Origin: Heterodontus francisci
Lineage: Eukaryota
Length of the DNA: 64,000 nt
Direction: 5' to 3'
Assembly: GCF_036365525.1 (NCBI RefSeq)
Contig: NC_090413.1
Location: 28,410,262-28,474,261 of the forward strand
Shown: positions 816-43,900 of the stretch, in pieces
Numbering within the stretch: position 1 is the first letter of the stretch
How the letters are laid out: every line of letters starts with the position of its first letter
Notes under the pieces: generated by a model
Told to the model about the DNA's origin: nothing
Seen by the model: only the letters and a program-made list of their open reading frames with translations
Databases searched by the model: none
Position numbers and translations under genes: made by a program

Positions 816-1007
816 CTGGCTCAGGGACCTGATGGGCAATTTCGAGGCTTTGCAGTCGTGGAATATGAAGCTGCGGATCAAGCAGAGGAAGTGCAGCAGG
901 AGACGGATGGGCTGTGGGTTGATGGGAACCACGTTCGGGTCTCATTCTGTGCACCTGGACCCCCAGGACGGAGTATGCTTCCAGCCCTGATAGCAGCTCA
1001 AGCTATG
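816..1007 (+). CDS. RAVER1: RAVER1 exon (end of RRM3), LAQGPDGQFRGFAVVEY...ALIAAQAM
   Basis: tgcag| acceptor, |gtgagg donor, 192 nt, phase 0-0, RNP1-like RGFAVVEY. Confidence 0.95.
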
Positions 1008-1458: not shown

Positions 1459-1588
1459 GCAATGAACCGTGGAAAGGGTCTTCTCCCAGAACCGAATCCT
1501 GTGCAGATTCTGAACAGCCTCAATAATCCAGCAACGCTGCAGCTTCTCCTAAATCCGTTAATTCATGGAGGCACAGGCGCGCAGCAGG
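1459..1588 (+). CDS. RAVER1: RAVER1 exon [19 protein letters not shown]...GAQQG
   Basis: ttgtag| acceptor, |gtgaga donor, 130 nt; [11 protein letters not shown] is conserved in RAVER proteins. Confidence 0.95.
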
Positions 1589-2979: not shown

Positions 2980-3083
2980 GAATTTTGGGAGCTGCCCCTT
3001 CAATGCCTCTGCTGGGGAATCCTGGATTAAGTGCAGCCCTCTTACAATTGGTTTTACAGAGCCAGAACCCAGCACAAACCCAG
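2980..3083 (+). CDS. RAVER1: RAVER1 exon GILGAAPSMPLL...QTQ (PRI1)
   Basis: ttcttcag| acceptor, |gtaaat donor, 104 nt, phase 1-0. Confidence 0.93.
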
Positions 3084-7382: not shown

Positions 7383-7469
7383 AATGCTTTACCTGGGAAT
7401 CCAGTTTTTCTGCAGAATCTGGTTCGGTCCCAGCTGATGCAAAATAAGGAGAACCAGGCATTCCTCAAT
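7383..7469 (+). CDS. RAVER1: RAVER1 87-nt exon NALPGNPVFLQNLVRSQLMQNKENQAFLN (probably a cassette exon)
   Basis: long pyrimidine tract and tag| acceptor, strong |gtaagt donor, phase 0-0, open frame; resembles the recalled RAVER2 segment GNTSNLFLQNL. Confidence 0.75.
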
Positions 7470-9385: not shown

Positions 9386-9494
9386 AAGCCTGGAATTCTG
9401 GGCGAATCTCCTCTTGCAGCTATGCAGCAAAACCCAACAGGACTTGGTGCCCCTCCACAACCAGGAAAGGGACTTCTTGGGGATTCGCCCACAG
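9386..9494 (+). CDS. RAVER1: RAVER1 exon KPGILGESPL...GLLGDSPTG
   Basis: ttttcag| acceptor, |gtatgt donor, 109 nt; matches human KPGILGDSPL. Confidence 0.95.
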
Positions 9495-10734: not shown

Positions 10735-11006
10735 GTCTAAATTCTGAGATAGCACAGTCCCAGATGAAGCTGCCTATGATGCCAATGGGGGCGATGCAAT
10801 CCCAGCAATATCTTGGACAGATGTCAGCAGACATGCAGGAAATGATGGAGAATCCATCACATTCTCGGCAAGTTACTCCTCCTCCAGTTACTCCGGCTCC
10901 TCTGCAAGGAATCCCCACATCTATCCTCGGCTCTGTGCTCAGTGATTTGAAGAAACAGAGGAAACAAAACATGTCACAAATGGCTGAACCAGTCTCCACA
11001 TCTGGG
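10735..11006 (+). CDS. RAVER1: RAVER1 exon (Met/Gln/Pro-rich low-complexity region)
   Basis: ccttgcag| acceptor, |gtgaga donor, 272 nt, phase 1-0, bridges the neighbouring exons in frame; QVTPPP resembles human QLTPPP. Confidence 0.85.
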
Positions 11007-12357: not shown

Positions 12358-12448
12358 CCATCTCTGTTGGGAGAACCACCAAAAGACCTTAGGATCCCTC
12401 AGAATCCATATCTCAATCTGCGAAGTGTGTTCCCTGTTAATCTGCCTG
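12358..12448 (+). CDS. RAVER1: RAVER1 exon [30 protein letters not shown] (main PTB-binding PRI)
   Basis: ttgcag| acceptor, |gtaagg donor, 91 nt; SLLGEPP hallmark. Confidence 0.96.
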
Positions 12449-13895: not shown

Positions 13896-14083
13896 CCAAT
13901 GCCAGCAACTCCATGTCCTATGGCCATAGTACTGGTCTTCTGGGAAACTACCCCAGTTCCAGCTCCAGAGTTCAGCAGGGATCTGGCCTCAGTGACTATC
14001 CAGAGTCCGGAAGCAGCCAGTTGGGTTATGGCAATTTTGAAAGTTATGACAATTACAGTCACTCTTACAGGGACTATGAGCAG
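13896..14083 (+). CDS. RAVER1: RAVER1 exon ANASNSMSYGHSTGLLGNYP...YRDYEQ (Ser/Tyr/Gly-rich)
   Basis: ttctctgacag| acceptor, |gtatgt donor, 188 nt, phase 1-0. Confidence 0.88.
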
Positions 14084-15043: not shown

Positions 15044-15115
15044 GAAAGAGAAATGGAGCGCTACCCACTATCGCGTAATTCTGGGCTTAGAGGGTACAGT
15101 CGTGACAGAAACGAG
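15044..15115 (+). CDS. RAVER1: RAVER1 repeated exon copy 1, EREMERYPLSRNSGLRGYSRDRNE
   Basis: ttatcag| acceptor, gag|gtaaat donor, 72 nt, phase 0-0. Confidence 0.82.
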
Positions 15116-15753
15116 GTAAATCTTATAAAGAAAATTGAAGATTAAACATCCTAGTAGAGGCAGCTGTAGTATAAATGTTTGAAAGGGTTAATGTCTGGGA
15201 CAGAGAGTAACACCTCCCACTGTGATGTAAGAGATGACATGGGAGAGAGACTTCTAGAAGAGAAGCAGCATGGCTTTAGTTGAGTTAGACATACTTATGT
15301 AAAGCTGTATATAGTTCTTTAATAGGTAATAAACTAGTTATTACAACTTACCAAAGGCTCAGGAATCTCTCCTAGCTAGACAAAGCAAACATACAACAGC
15401 AGCTGGATGCTTGGAGACTGTACGTTCTCGGGATACGTTAGCTACATTTACAGGCCAGATGTTCTTGCATTCCTTCTCCAGACTACAGAGTTAATTCTGT
15501 TTTACCAGGACAGTAGTTAGGCATCCATGTTTGATCTTGGTACACTGGGTAAACAAGGGACAAAAACAGCTGGGGTTCATGCTCTTTGTTAGTGTCCTGC
15601 ATGGGGAGGGACTGAGTTTAGTTTAGATGCTGTGAAGGTTGAATAGCTGTGACGTGAGGTAGGTAACTGGGAAGTAACAGCAGAGAAGGGCCTTGATGAA
15701 AGTTTGTCTCTACAGTTAAATGAATGATCTGATTGAGGTTTGTTCCTGACTAG

Positions 15754-15834
15754 GAAAGGGAGCTGGAGAGGTACTCAATGTCCCGTGACCCTGGCCTAGG
15801 AGGAATTGGGGGCTATGGGCGTGATCGAAATGAG
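15754..15834 (+). CDS. RAVER1: RAVER1 repeated exon copy 2, ERELERYSMSRDPGLGGIGGYGRDRNE
   Basis: ttcctgactag| acceptor, gag|gtacgt donor, 81 nt, phase 0-0. Confidence 0.8.
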
Positions 15835-16428
15835 GTACGTTTTACAAAGGGATTCCATGATTAGAATAAAGCATTCGAAGTAACGTACTAACTGATTCAT
15901 ATCTTGCTCTTTTGGGACTATACGTTACTAGATTCAGCCGTGAGTCATTACAGTTCCTTTCACTAAATACAATTCCAAGCAGAGTGCATCAGAGTGGAAC
16001 AGTTCAGTGACGGTCAGTAGTTACCACTTCCAAGAGCTGCAGCAGTGAGCAATGCAGACTCCAATATTCCCAGCTCAGTCACCAGCTTGTGCTGAGTTTG
16101 CTGATATCCATCAGGCAGGGATTGGCAAACTACAGTTGTCCTCAGCACACTGAGCCAAGAAGGGTCAACAGTCACGCAGGGGCTGGCATTTGTGATTGTT
16201 ATTCGATGACAGCTGCTGCAGTGAGATTGGCCAGGATGGAATCAGGTTTGGTTAAGATGCACTATGAAGTTGATTAGCCTGTCAACACTTGCTTTGTGTA
16301 ATGACCAGTTGGACAAAGTACGGGGTGCCAGTGGAATCTGTCATATGATGCCCCAGTAAGGAACTAATGCCCTTAAAAGGGAAAATATTGTCGAGAAAAT
16401 CCAAGTTCACTGAGGCTTTCTTTGTTAG

Positions 16429-16500
16429 GAAAGGGAGCTGGAACGATACCCGCTACTGCGCGACCCTGGACTTGGAGGGTACGGATCTGATCAAAATGAG
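16429..16500 (+). CDS. RAVER1: RAVER1 repeated exon copy 3, ERELERYPLLRDPGLGGYGSDQNE
   Basis: ctttctttgttag| acceptor, gag|gtaaag donor, 72 nt, phase 0-0. Confidence 0.82.
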
Positions 16501-17096: not shown

Positions 17097-17216
17097 CGAT
17101 CGACTCAATGTGGATATGATTTGGAACCTACTGCACCTCCACTATACTCCAGCTCTCCCACATCCTATTTCACCAGTGGTGTAAGAGCAGGACTCCGTCA
17201 AGGCTACTCCACCAAG
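17097..17216 (+). CDS. RAVER1: RAVER1 exon RSTQCGYD...YSSSPTSYFTSGVRAGLRQGYSTK
   Basis: ctaac branch point, pyrimidine tract, tttaag| acceptor, |gtgggc donor; SPTSYFTSG matches human. Confidence 0.88.
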
Positions 17217-17256: not shown

Positions 17257-18087
17257 TGTTGCGACCAGGTCAGAAAGGTGTCTAAGGGCCCCTCTCCGCC
17301 CTCACCTGGTCTTGCTGTAACAGGATTTAATTTTTAACTGTTTTTAGCTCCCCCTTGGTGAATCCTTGTTCACTGCTTTCCAATTATAAGGCAAAGAAAC
17401 CAGCACAAACAGGCCTTCTCAGGTTTAAAGAAGAAAGGTTCAAGTTTAATAAACTTGAACTTAAACACTAATTCGGTTGACGCTTAAGGATACATGATGC
17501 GTCGATGCTAGCATGCTTATGCGATGCATGCAAATTGAGACAGAGAAGAGAAGAAAAATCAAGTGGAAAAGTTTGAGGCAATATCTGAAGAGTTGTTACA
17601 GTTCTTGATTGCTGGTAGATCTTGTTTTTCGTTGCGACCCAGTATTCTTCAACTTTGTTCGCTGTAGGAGACTTTTCTGTCTTGGGGTTCATGTGTCTTC
17701 AGTAGATTGAGAGGCTTCTGAGAAAGAGATGGGAGCAGACAGGCGAGAGATCTTCAGTCCAGGAGCAAACAGACACTGAGTTCAAACTGTTTGTACAATT
17801 CAGAAAAAACCCAGGTTGCCAAGCAGGTTAGTCATGTGACTAACTGGTCTGACCACGTCTCTGGACTGCTCCTCTTACACACAATACCTGGTGATCAAGG
17901 TCCATTGTGGGTTGAATGTGTCAGGGAATGGTCCTTTGGCCTACCAATCACTGTCTGTTAATATGCAAATGTCTTTTCCAGCCACGGCTGATCTGTTTAA
18001 CAAGTCCTTTCTTCACTCCAGTAACAATTTAAAATCATGACAAAATTAATGTGCCTCATTCTTGGCAGGTGGAGGCCTAGCATGACA
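17257..18087 (-). mobile_element. Solo LTR-like element, copy 1 (~830 bp)
   Basis: TGT...ACA termini, flanked by TTA on both sides, colinear with 20109-20949; orientation inferred from a minus-strand poly(A)-like signal. Confidence 0.75.
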
Positions 18088-19379: not shown

Positions 19380-19457
19380 TTAAATCCACTGCTGAGTTCC
19401 GGGGCAGGACTCTTGGGTGCTCGTCCTGCCAACTCCCCACCAGGCTCCATGCTGAAG
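19380..19457 (+). CDS. RAVER1: RAVER1 exon LNPLLSSGAGLLGARPANSPPGSMLK
   Basis: gttgcag| acceptor, |gtaact donor, 78 nt, phase 0-0; corresponds to human GSGEGLLGLSP...LLK. Confidence 0.87.
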
Positions 19458-20108: not shown

Positions 20109-20949
20109 TGTTACGACCAAGTGAGAAAGTTGCCAGGGGTTCCTCTCAGCCTTCACCTGGTCTTACTGTAACATGGTTTGATTTTAAACATACCATGTTT
20201 TGAGCTTCCCCCTTGTTCACTGCTTTCCAATTATAAGGCAAAGAAATGAACACAAACAGGCTTTCTTGGGTTTAAAGAAGAAAAGTGAAATTTATTAAAC
20301 TTAAACTAAAAACTCTAATTGGGTTAACGCCTACAGATACACGCCGCGCCCCACACTAGCATGCATACGCGATACACATATGTAAATAGAGACAGAAAAG
20401 AGCAGAAGAAAAATAAAGTGGAAAGGTCTGAGACAATATTTGAAGAATTTTTTTGTTACAGGTATTCGAGCTCACTGTAGAGTCCTTGTTTGTAGGTGGA
20501 TCTTCTCATTTGGGCCCAATATTATTCTTAAACCTTGTTCACTAGGAAACTTTTCTTTCCTTGGGGTTCATGTGTCTTCAATGGATTCTGAAGCTGGTGA
20601 GAAAGATGGGAGTAGACAGGAGGAGAAGAGATTTTTTCAATCCAGGAGCACCGAGCTTTCTGTCTTCAAACACTCTTTCTCCAGTTTAAAACTCAGTTCA
20701 AATCTCTAACAGTCAGTTAGTCATGTGACTAAACTGGTCTGACCATGTCTGTTCTGTGTATTGGGAGCAGGGTATAGCTCCTTTGTTCCAAGACTGTCTG
20801 TCTGCTAGTATGCAAAAATGGCTTTCCAGCCGGGGGCTTGGCACCTCTTGTATTAGGCCTTCTCTTCTTCCAAGCAACACTTTGAAATTTAATGTCCATG
20901 TGGCAAAATTAATGTGCCTCATTCTTGGCAGGTGGGGGCCTGCATGACT
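20109..20949 (-). mobile_element. Solo LTR-like element, copy 2 (~840 bp)
   Basis: TGTTACGACC...GCATGAC(T) termini with a 4-bp target-site duplication GTGT (20105-20108 and 20950-20953); same family as 17257-18087. Confidence 0.78.
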
Positions 20950-21358: not shown

Positions 21359-21505
21359 ACACCACTCATTGGTCACAAGCGGGGTGCTTCTCACCTGATC
21401 CCATCACCCGAGCCCAGTCCAGAGGGAGGCTACATCGGCCAGCACTCGCAAGGCCTGGGTGGCCACTACGCTGACTCTTACCTGAAGCGCAAGAGGATAT
21501 TTTAG
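21359..21505 (+). CDS. RAVER1: RAVER1 last coding exon TPLIGHKRG...YLKRKRIF* (C-terminal NLS)
   Basis: ttccag| acceptor, TAG at 21503-21505, near-identical to the recalled human C-terminus. Confidence 0.97.
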
Positions 21506-24500: not shown

Positions 24501-24970
24501 TTGGACAATCTGCCTAATCACTGCCACTATCCTCCTCTTATCTGCATTATTAAAGTATAGAAATTCCTGAGCTTGCAAGCAATTAATGTTCTTTTAATCT
24601 GATACATCTATTCCTAGTTTTGAGTCAGATCAAAGTGCAATTAAATACTGCTCTGACTTCTGATAGCCCAGTTGATCGTCCCATACAGACCTGGAACTGT
24701 CCCTGATTTGAGGTCTGCTTTGCGGTATTTGCTGATCTCAGTTGAAACACTACGTTTGCCCTGAGAATATTGGGGCTAGAATGGGGGTAATTACTCCTGA
24801 TCTCATTCCAGCCACTTGTGCTGCTGAGTGCATGCACATGAAGTGATTCAGGCTCAGCTGTGATGCCCGACAGTCAAGTTGTCTGTTAAAATTGTGTTTC
24901 TCGAACTTTTTAGTAAACTTGTAATACATTGAAGTTCACTACCTGAATTAAAATACTGTTATTGAAGAAA
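21506..24970 (+). other. RAVER1: Probable long U-rich RAVER1 3' UTR (3' end uncertain)
   Basis: U-rich, TE-poor sequence after the stop; candidate poly(A) signals AATAAA at 23162 and ~24448 and ATTAAA at ~24549 and ~24947. Confidence 0.4.
23952..23976 (+). repeat. poly(G) run, 25 nt
   Basis: read directly from the sequence. Confidence 0.95.
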
Positions 24971-26454: not shown

Positions 26455-26535
26455 GGCCTGTCTCTTTAAGAAACTGCCCCTTTAAGAGGCTGCGCTTGCG
26501 TCATGGAGCGGGTCAGGTGACCAGGTGTCATGGCG
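26455..26535 (+). promoter_or_regulatory. FDX2 CpG-rich promoter / 5' region
   Basis: CpG rise, NRF1-like TGCGCTTGCG (26491-26500), CTTTAAG twice, YY1-like CATGGCGG at the start codon. Confidence 0.5.
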
Positions 26536-26668
26536 GCGGCCAGTGTGACTCGGTGTGGCCTCCGCTTCGCCCTCAGGCTGAGACCTGCTCGGCTGGGACC
26601 GGGACCGCGGAGACAGCGACAGGAAAACTGGCCCAAGGCCCAAGCCCGGCCCCTCCACACCGGCCTGA
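26530..26668 (+). CDS. FDX2: FDX2 exon 1 (mitochondrial transit peptide MAAASVTRCGLRFALRLRP...)
   Basis: gtcATGG Kozak context, |gtgagt donor, phase 1. Confidence 0.88.
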
Positions 26669-26717
26669 GTGAGTGAAAGGCAGAGGCCGCCCTGGGCCCA
26701 GTGCGGAACCCCGGGGA

Positions 26718-27690
26718 TGAGGGGGGGGGGGGGGGGGGAAACAGTGACCCCAGGGGAGTGAGGGGTGGGGGAGAGACAGTGACCCCAGGGAGGAGAGAGG
26801 GGTGGGGGAGAGACAGTGACCCCAGGGAGGAGAGAGGGGTGGGGGGAGACTTTCCCCAGAGGGGTGGGGTGGAGGAGAGTGACCCCAGGGGAGAGTGAGG
26901 GTTGGGGGAGAGACAGTGACCCCAGGGGGGAGAGAGGGGTGGGGGAGAGACAGTGACCCCAGGGAGGAGAGAGGGGTGGGGGGAGACTTTCCCCAGAGGG
27001 GTGGGGTGGAGGAGAGTGACCCCAGGGGAGAGTGAGGGGTGGGGGAGAGACAGTGACCCCAGGGAGGAGAGAGAGGTGGGGGAGAGACAGTGACCCCAGG
27101 GAGGAGAGAGAGGTGGGGGAGAGACAGTGACCCCAGGGAGGAGAGAGGGGTGGGGGGAGACTTTCCCCAGAGGGGTGGGGTGGAGGAGAGTGACCCCAGG
27201 GGAGAGTGAGGGGTGGGGGAGAGACAGTGACCCCAGGGAGGAGAGAGAGGTGGGGGAGAGACAGTGACCCCAGGGAGGAGAGAGGGGTGGGGGGAGACTT
27301 TCCCCAGAGGGGTGGGGTGGAGGAGAGTGACCCCAGGGGAGAGTGAGGGTTGGGGGAGAGACAGTGACCCCAGGGGGGAGAGAGGGGTGGGGGAGAGACA
27401 GTGACCCCAGGGAGGAGAGAGGGGTGGGGGGAGACTTTCCCCAGAGGGGTGGGGTGGAGGAGAGTGACCCCAGGGGAGAGTGAGGGGTGGGGGAGAGACA
27501 GTGACCCCAGGGGGGAGAGAGGGGTGGGGGAGAGACAGTGACCCCAGGGAGGAGAGAGGGGTGGGGTGGAGGAGAGTGACCCCAGGGGAGAGTGAGGGGT
27601 GGGGGAGAGACAGTGACCCCAGGAGAGGGAGAGACACCAGGGGAGAGTGAGGGGGGGGGGGGGGTGGGGGAAGGGACAGTGACCCCAAGG
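26718..27690 (+). repeat. G-rich minisatellite in FDX2 intron 1 (~37-bp unit, 137-bp higher-order period)
   Basis: GAGACAGTGACCCCAGGGAGGAGAGAGGGGTGGGG units; the GACTTTCCCC variant recurs at 26851, 26988, 27162, 27299, 27436. Confidence 0.95.
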
Positions 27691-28142
27691 GGATTAGGTC
27701 CCTCCCCAAGATTGAGCCACCATCTGAATCTGACGTCACCCAGATGATGAACGGTTGCTACAACAGGGCAGCTTCCAGCAAATCCTGAGTTCTGTCCCCA
27801 GTCTCTGTCTGTGCCCTATTCTGGCCCTTGGTTCTATTCCTGTGTACGGCTCCAGTGAAGCGACAAGTTAAAATATTTCTTCTTCTTTCAGGCAGTTAGG
27901 AATGACAAACAACAAGATCAGGCAAGTAATAAAAACAGATGCTGCCGGGCCTGCTGAGTATTTCTTGTTTTTATTGAAGATCAGGCAAGTGTTTAATTCA
28001 GTTGTTAACTCCACCACAGCAAATGTTCAACCTGACCCTTCACTTGGTGTACAAGTCACTGATGGTCTGACAGATGGGCAGCTTCGATGTGGCTTCATGC
28101 AGTCCTTGGTTAAAAGTGTTGATCACTTTTGTTTGTTTCCAG

Positions 28143-28194
28143 ATGCTTGTCAGTGTGAAGACACAAACCAGAAACCCGACAGTTCAACAGACGT
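28143..28194 (+). CDS. FDX2: FDX2 exon 2
   Basis: tttccag| acceptor, |gtaagt donor, 52 nt, phase 1-2. Confidence 0.88.
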
Positions 28195-28684
28195 GTAAGT
28201 ATAAAAAGCCGACGTGTGGAGGTTTCTTACTCCCATTCTATTCTGATTTTAGTCCAGTTCCTTGTCCCTCCCTAATTTTTTCTTCTCCTGAATGTGCTGA
28301 CTCATGCTGAGATACATTCACTCCCTCCCCTCCTTTCCTATGGCCTGTTGGTTTTGCATTTTCTGTTGATGGAGAGATCTGACAAGTAACTGGGGATCTC
28401 CTATCAATATCCCAGATCACTTTGCATCAAAGGTTCTGTGATTTCACAGGGTCTATGGAAGTGATTTTTTGAGATAAAGTATCTGAAGCAAGCTCAAATC
28501 ATAACATCATAAGATTCCATCAGGGCTGCTGTGTGAATCATAGGCAAATGAGAGGGACCAGACCACTTCCCAGAGAGGACATCAACTCCTTTAGGAATAA
28601 AACTGACCAGAAATAAATTGAGTGTTTTTACAGGCAACTTTCAATAAATACACAACATTGTGTAATGATTTATAATTTTCATGA

Positions 28685-28837
<153 letters not shown>

Positions 28838-29453
28838 TGATGGAGCCAGATCTTTAAATTCTTCAGCTTCTTAAAGTGGACAGGCTTATTTAGTGATTTG
28901 AGTTAAGGGATAAATATTTGGGTCACTGGGGAAATGTTCCAGTTGTTCTTGAATAGCTTAACTGAGGGCATACAGGGACTCGGTTTAACATGTCATCTGA
29001 AGGTATTTTGGGAATCATATTCCATGATTCCCATCAACCAGTCAGTTGTGTGAAGCTGAATGCTTTTTGTCAGCAGGTGTAGATATTTGAGGGCCCTGTA
29101 TGTTCTGGTACCTCGCATGATAAATGCCTGGTGTGGCTGTTCCACACATCACTGAACTACTCCAAGTTCATCCCTGCTCTTGGCTCTGTTGGACAACCTC
29201 ATCTGCGTGGCAATAGTTGGATTGAGGGACACTGACAAAGGATGAAGTTCCTACTTCTAAACGCTATCCAGTCACTCTTATGTGTGAGCGGGCGCGCTGT
29301 GTAGATTTTTGGGAGGGACGGGATCAGATTCGGCTATGAATTCACCCATGTTGATTTCAACAACTCTGGGCTCACGTAAAGAAAGGAGACTTGAGCAAGG
29401 CACCAGAGAGCTACCCCCACTCACTCGTGTACTTGTACCTCACCAAGTGTTGA

Positions 29454-29723
<270 letters not shown>

Positions 29724-30360
29724 TAACCTGTTTTCTCTAGGATCCAATATTTGCAGTGTAAAGTGGTGAATGTGAGCAATTGGTCCAAGAGCCAACAGTT
29801 ATACCCTTTTAGCACTGGGTTTAGCACCGAAAGTTGTGAAGGATCCCAATTGTATAATCCTAATCTCTTCCATAGATGAAACATCACCATACTGTCGGAC
29901 AATATATTTCAGGTTACACGACAGATCAGAAGTTTTACAAGACATAAAATTATACAAATTGTAGCAGCAGGTAAACAGTAATATGTTCACAGCAAAACTT
30001 TATATATCTGTTTCTGAAACAATAATTAACAAAACTGTTCAAATGACTCTTATATGGAACACTGCAATCTCTGTGAAGTTCTCTCTTACTGCTGAGTATT
30101 GGAATATTAATGCTGTAACTGAGAGTTTATTAGCAGTACAGGCTGATGCACAATTTGTGGCAACAAAATGCCACCACTGGTGGTTGGATGTAATTACAAT
30201 GTGACATGTTTACATGAGTAATTTCCATTATAACTGGTGGCATAGGAATTCATAATGAAAAAAAAGTTAACCCAAAAATGTGGCAACAGGTTTTGCCAGT
30301 GGGAAGTAACATTTTTAATACTTTAGCAATAGATATACTTGCCAGAATTTGAAAAGATGA

Positions 30361-32616: not shown

Positions 32617-33045
32617 GTGACTCCCATCCTGCAGGGGGCGCTGTGGTGGGAGGAGTGACTCCCATGCGGCAGGGGGCGCTATGCGGCAAGGGCGCTGTGC
32701 GGGGAGGAGTGACTCCCATGCGGCGGGGGCGCTGTGCGGAGAGGAGTGACTCCCATGCGGCAAGGGCGCTGTGCGGGGAAGAGTGACTCCCATGCGGCGG
32801 GGGCGCTGTGCGGAGAGGAGTGACTCCCATGCGGCGGGGGCGCTGTGCGGGGAGGAGTGACTCCCATGCGGCGGGGGCGCTGTGCGGGGAGGAGTGACTC
32901 CCATGCGGCGGGGGCGCTGTGCGGAGAGGAGTGACTCCCATGCGGCGGGGGCGCTGTGCGGGGAGGAGTGACTCCCATGCGGCGGGGGGCGCTGTGAGGG
33001 GAGGAGTGACTCCCATGCGGCGGGGGGCGCTGTGGTGGGAGGTCT
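32617..33045 (+). repeat. CpG-rich 37-bp minisatellite (~11 units) at the FBXL12 promoter
   Basis: GTGACTCCCATGCGGCGGGGGCGCTGTGCGGGGAGGA repeated. Confidence 0.95.
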
Positions 33046-33451: not shown

Positions 33452-34110
33452 TCTCAGGAGAGGGGGAATTGTACCCCAGGGAGAGTCAACATCTTCAGGA
33501 GAGGAGGAACTGTACCCCAGGGAGTGTCAACACCTTCAGGAGAGAGGGAACTGTACCCCAGGGAGTGTCAACACCTTCAGGAGAGAGGGAATTGTACCCC
33601 AGGGAGTGTCAGCACCTTCAGGAGAGGGGGAATTGTACCCCAGGGAGAGTCAGCACCTTCAGGAGAGGGGGAATTGTACCCCAGGGAGAGTCAGCACCTT
33701 CAGGAGAGGGGGAATTGTACCCCAGGGAGAGTCAGCACCTTCAGGAGAGGGGGAATTGTACCCCAGAGAGAGTCAGCACCTTCAGGAGAGGGGGAATTGT
33801 ACCCCAGGGAGAGTCAGCACCTTCAGGAGAGGGGGAATTGTACCCCAGAGAGAGTCAGCACCTTCAGGAGAGGGGGAATTGTACCCCAGGGAGTGTCAAC
33901 ACCTTCAGGAGAGAGGGAATTGTACCCCAGGGAGAGTCAGCACCTTCAGGAGAGGGGGAATTGTACCCCAGGGAGAGTCAGCACCTTCAGGAGAGGGGGA
34001 ATTGTACCCCAGGGAGAGTCAGCACCTTCAGGAGAGGAGGAACTGTACCACAGGGAGAGCCGGCACCTTCAGGAAAGGGGGAAATGTACCCCAGGAAGTG
34101 TCAGAGCTGA
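33452..34110 (+). repeat. 41-bp minisatellite (~16 units) in FBXL12 intron 1
   Basis: CCTTCAGGAGAGGGGGAATTGTACCCCAGGGAGAGTCAGCA repeated. Confidence 0.95.
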
Positions 34111-41060: not shown

Positions 41061-41599
41061 AATGGGAAGAGCACAGAGCCTGTGGACTGGGTAGTGGGTG
41101 CACAATGCTATATGTACTTGTATCAAAGAGTCAGTCAGCTGTTAGAACAAAAGATACTGAAAGCAGAGGAGCAGAAAGATTTTATTTTGTGAAAATGTGC
41201 CGCTGTGGAACTATGACTTGGAATTTCAGATCCTGCTTGCTTCTTCAAGGCTTGTGAGAGTGCAGTGAAACTGCTGTTGGCAACACCCATCTCAGTCGAC
41301 CTCTATATGGAAATGTCCATTGCCCTCACAGTATTATATAATTTAGCAGTTCAACAGCTACACTGGTTAAAAAACCTTTCTTTGTGTGTGCCTGTTGGAT
41401 CTGAACTTTTCCTTAGTTTGGATCTCTGCTTGTTTGAGTTTTGCACCTTTGTCTTGACAGTCAGTATGTGTGCATGTGTTTTTTTAAAGGGGCTGTGAAA
41501 TACAAACTTGTCCAGTGCAACATCTTAAAGATCCATTTGATTATTTTCCTTCAAGGCCCATTTCTGTAGCCAAGCTGTACAGATGACTATGTATGACGC

Positions 41600-41832
41600 C
41601 TGCCCTGTGTTGGGCTGCCCATGTTGACCCATTGGTCTCTGGGTGGCCATGTTGACCCCTGCCCTGTGTTGTGTTGCCTGTGTTGACCCCTGCCCTGTGT
41701 TGGGTTGCCCGTGTTGACCCCTGCCCTGTGTTGGGTTGCCCGTGTTGACCCCTGGCCTGTGTTGGGTTGCCCGTGCTGACCCCTGGCCTGTGTTGGGTTG
41801 CCCGTGCTGACCCCTGGCCTATGTTGGGTTGG
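41600..41832 (+). repeat. 31-bp minisatellite (~7 units)
   Basis: CCGTGTTGACCCCTGCCCTGTGTTGGGTTGC repeated. Confidence 0.9.
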
Positions 41833-43349: not shown

Positions 43350-43900
43350 GCAATTCTTCCCAAGCTGCAGGTGGCGTTGTAGCAGCGCCCATTCTCCGGC
43401 TCCTCCCGGGCTGCAGGAGGCGCTGTCGCGGCGTTCACGCTCCTGCTCCTCCCGGGCTGCAGGAGGCGCTGTCGCGGCGTTCACGCTCCTCCCGGGCTGC
43501 AGGAGGCGCTGTCGCGGCGCCGGTCAAGAGTTTCTGGTCGGGCGCCGCTCTCTACCTTCAGTGATGATAATGGTCGTCAGGGAATGGCTGTCCGGTCAGT
43601 TTGTCTGACGCTTGACAGGAGGGCGCATAAACTATGGCTAAATTAGCAGTTTAACCTCCAATCAACCGAAACGAAGCTGCTGAAAACCAATTTTTAACGA
43701 GAGAAATGGGTTAAGGTGAGCGCTTTAAATAAAATATCCACAATAAAGCAGCGGCTTGGAGACGCGCCTCAACTCAAGCTGACGGTCACCGGGGGGGGGG
43801 GGGCGGGTCCAGTGTCAGTTTGCACAGCAATTGGCTAGTTGGCTGTCAATCAGGCTAGATCTGATGTGTGATTGGTCCATACAGATGCCAATCAAAGCTC
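43350..43900 (+). promoter_or_regulatory. ATG4D: CpG island, probable ATG4D promoter with non-coding exon 1 (donor aag|gtgagc at 43715/43716)
   Basis: local CpG enrichment, strong donor, GC box, CCAAT boxes; the first ATG4D coding exon starts with an acceptor, so an upstream exon is required. Confidence 0.6.
43399..43519 (+). repeat. 40-bp tandem repeat x3 in the ATG4D CpG island
   Basis: GCTCCTCCCGGGCTGCAGGAGGCGCTGTCGCGGCGTTCAC. Confidence 0.92.

Follow-up and report, generated by a model that had tools for sequence, protein, structure and literature searches.

Three tandem copies of a RAVER1 coding exon are spliced together in the horn shark and are shared by sharks and rays

Genes and features of the locus

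The window, that is, the whole 64,000-nt stretch of Heterodontus francisci (horn shark) DNA that was analysed, carries exons of RAVER1 on the forward strand, three of which are tandem copies of one another (Table 1). The translated exon just upstream of the copies (13898-14083) is 100% identical to protein P0001, named RAVER1 of H. francisci, and a sequence-only reading of the same DNA had named the gene correctly. P0001 is the RefSeq model XP_067877381.1 (ribonucleoprotein PTB-binding 1). Thirteen exons of the window map onto it, and the three units are already annotated there in a row. RAVER1 was set apart from RAVER2 by informative hit names and by the gene order downstream. A ferredoxin-like exon follows the horn shark gene, in agreement with the order RAVER1-FDX2 of the human genome.

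P0001 has three Pfam RRM_1 stretches in its N-terminal part, with only the end of RRM3 coded in the window, and six matches to the PRI consensus [S/G][I/L]LGxxP (PMC3420021), among them SLLGEPP at 561 and GLLGARP at 777. The former is PRI3, described in the same source as a high-affinity PTB-binding motif. An extra match to the consensus in the exon preceding the repeats (GLLGNYP, or GLLGDYP in chimaera) was present in six of six cartilaginous fishes and in none of the 12 bony vertebrates scanned. The 87-nt cassette exon of Table 1 is present in other shark, ray, lungfish, coelacanth, and sturgeon models. No Pfam family was found for the repeat at E 0.01, and Rfam gave nothing in the 64,000-nt window at gathering scores.

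Table 1. Features of the window (positions counted from its first nucleotide).
Feature	Position	Strand	Characters	Evidence
RAVER1 exon with the end of RRM3	816-1007	+		maps to P0001
RAVER1 exon	1459-1588	+		maps to P0001
RAVER1 exon	2980-3083	+		maps to P0001
RAVER1 cassette exon	7383-7469	+	87 nt, in frame	AG/GT ends; absent from P0001
RAVER1 exon	9386-9494	+		maps to P0001
RAVER1 exon	10735-11006	+		maps to P0001
Exon completing PRI3, upstream of repeats	12358-12448	+	SLLGEPP	transcript contigs, motif scan, P0001 mapping
Exon upstream of repeats	13896-14083	+	phase 1-0, Tyr/Ser/Gly-rich, PRI-like GLLGNYP	P0001 identity, motif scan
Repeat exon, copy 1	15044-15115	+	72 nt, 24 codons, phase 0-0	residues 653-676 of P0001
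Repeat exon, copy 2	15754-15834	+	81 nt, 27 codons, probable ancestral length	residues 677-703 of P0001
Repeat exon, copy 3	16429-16500	+	72 nt, 24 codons	residues 704-727 of P0001
Exon downstream of repeats	17097-17216	+	phase 0-0, conserved SPTSYF anchor	joint 16500>17097, maps to P0001
Exon with motif at PRI4 position, downstream of repeats	19380-19457	+	GLLGARP	transcript contigs, motif scan, P0001 mapping
Last coding exon	21359-21505	+	ends KRKRIF and stop
Interspersed-repeat copies in RAVER1 introns	17257-17860; 20109-20750		73% identical	many diverged contigs over them in 4/4 runs
Ferredoxin-like gene (presumed FDX2, by synteny)	about 26500-29726		starts about 5 kb past the RAVER1 stop	motif-bearing exon in 29454-29726
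GC-rich minisatellites	26727-27634; 32681-33042; 33454-34104; 41594-41831; 43364-43519		periods of about 31-46 nt and multiples

The repeat exons and their constraint

Three paralogous phase 0-0 exons with intact splice sites had been proposed from the sequence, and their coordinates, ends, and translations were reproduced. Each copy opens in phase 0 and reads AG/GAA...GAG/GT, with slashes at the exon borders. In an ungapped repeat search, 3-copy families at these exons had 69-78% identity to the reference copy, with exon starts spaced 666-719 nt apart. The introns of the triplet are 638, 594, and 596 nt long, and the triplet codes for 75 residues (653-727 of horn shark RAVER1). Copies 1 and 3 have exactly 16 of 24 residues in common, with nine of those 16 codons differing synonymously, as had been counted before. 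The 9-nt in-frame indel that distinguishes copy 2 is also present, but it is likelier to reflect loss in copies 1 and 3 than insertion into copy 2, given that the exon is 27 residues long in eight of 12 single-copy sequences (chimaera, coelacanth, newt, tortoise, emu, alligator, sturgeon, and gar). Copies 1 and 3 have probably lost three codons each, while copy 2, which keeps 27 residues in 19 of 20 elasmobranchs, would have retained the old length. The start of the intron after copy 2 (15835-15849) reads VRFTK in frame, with no GT after that stretch in the window. In three of six sawshark models, use of a donor further downstream adds VNFTK to unit 2, and VRFTK is also read in the partial model P0006; the start of this intron therefore seems to be conserved.

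Purifying selection among the copies, part of the sequence-only reading, is supported by Nei-Gojobori pN/pS ratios of 0.28 (copy 1 vs. 3), 0.21 (2 vs. 1), and 0.25 (2 vs. 3), with one-sided Fisher p of 2.8e-4, 8.9e-6, and 3.1e-4, respectively, and with synonymous sites near saturation (pS 0.61-0.79). The ratios represent constraint since duplication and are, alone, no proof of a need for three copies. Both Tyr positions are retained in 60 of 60 elasmobranch units. Among seven tail exons compared in 20 species, the repeat units have the lowest conservation (mean identity 0.72-0.73 vs. 0.78-0.97), and the constraint is therefore moderate; unit 1 of skates has added ER dipeptides. Among the 40 of 123 differences listed, the only one in the triplet is a synonymous change in copy 3, 16461 C>T, in the run of a second organism.

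The introns were also said to have largely diverged, and this holds, with two of six intron pairs scoring above all 100 shuffles (i1/i2, 56 vs. a maximum of 40; i2/i3, 42 vs. a maximum of 34). Introns 1 and 2 have a weak likeness at 15487-15651 and 16093-16282 (nhmmer E 0.004). Because the intron-2 segment matches 24695-24871 equally well (E 0.002), a duplication relic and old interspersed repeats are inseparable here.

Splicing of the three copies

Transcript evidence came from four of seven listed runs (X1-X4), with no more than two samples, studies, or organisms behind them. The runs are Logan contigs, which drop rare variants, and their RNA status is a guess, although spliced joints occur in the contigs; none of the listed runs is recorded as RNA, a blank that speaks neither for nor against it. 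A single contig of each of the four runs holds the joints 14083>15044, 15115>15754, 15834>16429, and 16500>17097, all GT..AG; for X2, X3, and X4, the record coordinates sum to exactly all three exons. The three copies are spliced together into the main mRNA. No skipping joint was among the 15 of 201 joints listed from these contigs, in which rare forms are dropped. Contigs begin at exon 9386 in three of four runs, and in X1 there is a break after exon 19457; these ends coincide with places where annotated isoforms differ, which serves as a weak control; none breaks at the triplet.

Three units are present in 57 of 59 shark and ray RAVER1 models, two units in the remaining two, and a single unit in none. 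Fifty-eight of these models belong to 21 named species; the partial models P0006 and P0010, made by a gene caller, are excluded, and with 12 members of one cluster outside the count, 57/59 applies to the models listed. Mutually exclusive use, with one copy per transcript, had been one of the options named for these exons, which are homologous, adjacent, of the same phase, and similar in length. Because the direct joints 15115>15754 and 15834>16429 occur in four of four runs, it is rejected for the major transcript; single-copy models are absent, the introns of about 600 nt leave no steric block, and this option retains hardly any probability. Constitutive use, another of the options, is the one supported by the co-inclusion in runs and models. 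That all three copies are functional, as had been proposed, agrees with their joint presence in transcripts and with the purifying selection; all are spliced and none is decaying.

Distribution and age in sharks and rays

A three-unit model was found in all 21 named elasmobranch species, among them sevengill shark, sawshark, carpet sharks, catsharks, sawfish, skates, and stingrays. In 243 of 273 comparisons, a ray unit had its best match in the shark unit of the same position. A tree of 57 units (39 from elasmobranchs, six from lungfish, and 12 single copies) was computed from only 27 columns, with the elasmobranchs represented by 13 of 20 aligned species after seven near-duplicates were left out. 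A branch supported at 95/100 sets the 39 elasmobranch units, without exception, apart from the lungfish units and single copies. Unit 1 (94/80) and unit 3 (93/82) each group sharks with rays, and unit 2 does not form one group in this 27-column tree. Based on the same-position matches and on the grouping of units 1 and 3, the triplication likely predates the split of sharks and rays, about 250-300 million years ago. Taken jointly, the splicing mode and the age of the triplet are regarded as highly probable.

The single exon of other vertebrates

Among 104 bony-vertebrate models (P0019-P0122, within the best 120 of 672 matches), 85 have one unit, 19 have none, and none has more; teleosts, frogs, lamprey, and human are absent from the matches listed. 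Inspected by eye, the 19 unit-less models consist of 12 clean skips and seven faulty models. The clean skips (P0033, P0047, P0056-P0058, P0068, P0073, P0086, P0099, P0116, P0121, and P0122) are from amniotes, namely a turtle, lizards, snakes, camels, and a bat. One unit is present also in the complete coelacanth model P0166, used instead of P0064 and P0082, which are broken in the repeat region, in newt P0160, and in the chimaera. The single copy is found in chimaera, coelacanth, newt, sturgeon, gar, bichir, and amniotes. The copy-number survey suggested by the sequence-only reading gives three copies across sharks and rays and one in the chimaera and the bony fishes seen other than lungfish, and the triplet is not general in vertebrate RAVER1, as none of the 104 bony-vertebrate models exceeds one unit.

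The unit of the chimaera (Callorhinchus milii, P0165) was placed by position and length, and no profile matched it. A Tyr/Glu/Gln/Asp micro-repeat lies between PRI3 and this single unit, just upstream of the latter, in a tract with 28 Tyr in 151 residues.

The six units of the lungfish

RAVER1 of the African lungfish (Protopterus annectens) has six units in the same place (residues 662-815 of P0164; also P0018 and P0161-P0163), and unit number across vertebrate models spans 0-6. Exactly unit 3 is missing from isoform X2, and exactly unit 5 from isoform X4, which suggests that the lungfish units are separate exons. A profile of the lungfish units matched the tortoise single exon over its whole length with E 5e-4 and shark unit 3 with E 6e-5 (single-sequence E-values). 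Scores of cross-profile matches among shark, lungfish, and single-copy units are low (E 5e-5 to 0.04), and homology of these units therefore rests on position, phase-like boundaries, and modest similarity. An AU test against grouping lungfish units 4 and 6 with unit 3 of sharks was borderline (p 0.041), with the group picked post hoc. The lungfish repeat region, searched against 1356 candidates, returned four proteins (itself, two sharks, and one newt), and no second lungfish was among them.

Judged by these comparisons, the lungfish array is likely an independent expansion of the same exon. An alternative is that the jawed-vertebrate ancestor already had several copies, of which all lineages but elasmobranchs and lungfish retained one. 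This would agree with the DPGLGGY-like core shared by lungfish units 1, 4, and 6 and the shark units (profile E 2e-4 to 3e-3), and with the best non-self match of the lungfish tail, which is the horn shark protein. It would, however, require four losses, one each in the chimaera, in ray-finned fishes, in the coelacanth, and in tetrapods, and a history of two gains is simpler. The elasmobranch units form one group in the tree (95/100), and the lungfish units start with D and end with K as in the single exon of bony vertebrates. Such an ancestral array is improbable, and concerted evolution could have hidden one.

Constitutive or regulated inclusion

The lungfish and amniote isoforms bear on another option named earlier, that of combinatorial cassettes. 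Skipping regulated by tissue or stage would then provide a dial of zero to three units, as the single ancestral exon gives zero or one in amniotes. Isoform X2 of the white shark lacks unit 2 and isoform X2 of the brownbanded bamboo shark lacks unit 1 (P0124 and P0196), the lungfish isoforms each lack one exact unit, and the single exon is cleanly skipped in 12 of 104 bony-vertebrate models. The acceptors of the three copies are preceded by 11-13 pyrimidines in 18 nt (11/18, the fewest, in copy 2) against 11-15/18 for the other exons. On the other hand, all three units are kept in 57 of 59 models, though the same annotations resolve many other small variants, and the contigs run unbroken through the triplet in all four runs, yet end where annotated isoforms differ elsewhere. 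Regulated cassettes are accordingly rather unlikely; what remains of the option is a minor role at most, one copy being skipped in two of 59 models, and skipping of single copies in sharks and rays looks minor.

Composition of the tail and possible role

The triplet lies between the PTB-binding motifs PRI3 and PRI4 and adds no new PRI motif. With the triplet, the PRI3-PRI4 spacer has 209-218 residues, compared with 148-177 in coelacanth, platypus, seal, and chimaera. The horn shark triplet contains 6 Tyr, 14 Arg, no Lys, and 17 Asp/Glu, with 41% charged residues, a net charge of -0.04, and one GY per unit; it is predicted to be disordered (FoldIndex -0.31). AlphaFold on a 15-row alignment gave a mean pLDDT of 34, with low quality in the RRMs too, and is therefore of no use as evidence of disorder.

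The C-terminal region of RAVER1 is reported to be an intrinsically disordered region (IDR) that mediates association with the perinucleolar compartment (PNC) and gives nuclear aggregates without the RRMs (PMC11039986). The tail carries the PTB-binding PRI motifs (PMC11039986; PMC3420021), and the 442-748 half of mouse RAVER1 is described as binding alpha-actinin as well (PMC2150882). We propose that the triplet arose by two rounds of unequal crossing-over from an exon of 27 codons in phase 0-0, which preserves the frame whatever the number of copies, and that this triplication likely happened once, before sharks and rays split. Occasional skipping of one copy would produce minor two-unit forms. 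The fixed array of three Tyr/Arg/acidic units may then act as stickers, strengthening weak multivalent contacts of the predicted disordered tail. The whole account, a co-spliced old elasmobranch triplet acting as a three-unit sticker array, is considered probable. The sticker function taken by itself is put forward tentatively, with somewhat less than even confidence, by analogy with GY-rich hnRNP IDR exons (PMC8498194) and Arg-rich mixed-charge domains (10.1101/771592). Against it stand the slightly negative net charge of the triplet, the position of the units as the least conserved of the tail exons compared, and the lack of a PRI in the repeats, while recruitment of RAVER1 to the PNC is reported to depend on PRI-PTBP1 binding (PMC11039986). 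Condensation of mixed-charge domains is reported to be abolished by negative charge (10.1101/771592).

A serious rival is that the triplet is a tolerated spacer, a duplication fixed by drift where a symmetric exon in a disordered region is cheap, with three copies doing no more than one and selection keeping only the frame, splice sites, and overall composition. The range of copy number from 0 to 6 across vertebrate models, the clean exon skip in 12 amniote models, the low conservation of the units, and the ER dipeptides added in skates fit with a spacer. Exactly three copies with position-specific signatures in 21 of 21 named species, both tyrosines in 60 of 60 units, and the pN/pS of 0.21-0.28 speak against it, and we give it a substantial, though minority, chance.

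Tyrosines between PRI3 and the SYF anchor number 17-18 in five elasmobranchs, 28 in the chimaera, and 23 in the lungfish. Coelacanth and tetrapods have 3-5, and sturgeon, gar, and bichir have 5-10. Only 6 of the 17 Tyr of the horn shark come from the triplet, and 8 come from the upstream exon. These counts would fit an adaptation to urea, in which the Tyr-rich expansions of elasmobranchs, chimaera, and lungfish offset condensate contacts weakened by intracellular urea; urea is found in chimaera and in aestivating lungfish. However, the coelacanth, likewise urea-retaining, has one copy and 5 Tyr, and because of this single copy the idea is only a weak rival. TMAO counteracts urea, one gene only is concerned, and there are only three lineages, of which chimaera and elasmobranchs are related; an adaptation to urea is very unlikely. 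Urea retention by elasmobranchs is documented in PMC10039937 and PMC10998561.

In the widest reading, the exon is an evolutionary valency dial, set to zero or one by splicing in amniotes, to three in elasmobranchs, and independently to six, with skippable members, in lungfish, while the chimaera came to a like Tyr enrichment through its micro-repeat, under convergent selection for stickier RAVER1-PTB assemblies that is possibly linked to urea. We regard this as speculative and rather improbable.

Relation to known systems

The horn shark RAVER1 model XP_067877381.1 is the same gene, with three RRM_1, PRI motifs, C-terminal KRKR, and three units; bony-vertebrate RAVER1 models except lungfish differ by having one copy or none. 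Most tandem duplicated exons are reported to end as constitutive (PMC8373072), and since this is their usual fate, the mechanism proposed here is ordinary. Like the duplicates of that study, the RAVER1 exon is symmetric, arranged in tandem, and co-included, but in its case the unit is low-complexity sequence from a disordered tail rather than a folded module, and it seems to have been expanded twice; RAVER does not occur in the main text of PMC8373072. A common origin by tandem duplication, equal phase, and selection on all copies are shared with mutually exclusive homologous exons, whereas the RAVER1 copies are joined to each other in transcripts.

The GY-rich IDR exons of the hnRNP A/D family (such as HNRNPA1 exon 7B) are a possible parallel from other splicing regulators, where the number of Gly/Tyr motifs is set at the exon level (PMC8498194, citing Gueroussov 2017). 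There, the number falls by mammal-specific skipping, whereas in RAVER1 it rises by duplication; the RAVER1 unit is charge-rich with only one GY. Nuclear-speckle Arg-enriched mixed-charge domains alternate Arg with Asp/Glu without Lys, as the triplet does (10.1101/771592). The triplet is only 75 residues long, diluted by Gly, Tyr, and Pro, and slightly negative (-0.04), and RAVER1 is reported at the perinucleolar compartment and not at speckles (PMC11039986). In a literature search with subscription journals mostly outside its scope, no description of the repeat or of the RAVER1 exon was found among the papers listed.

Meaning of the triplet

The triplet is already present in RefSeq models and is general in sharks and rays. 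It is real, old, functional, and mechanistically ordinary, and the likely parallel six-fold expansion in lungfish is the interesting part. The finding points to a little-studied RAVER1 exon that is skipped in many amniote models. Should copy number be neutral, what remains is an ordinary constitutive triplication and a marker common to sharks and rays. If copy number alters activity, vertebrates would provide a PTB co-repressor in which one IDR module forms a natural series of 0-1-3-6 units, and such a series would test sticker number against splicing repression and association with nuclear bodies.
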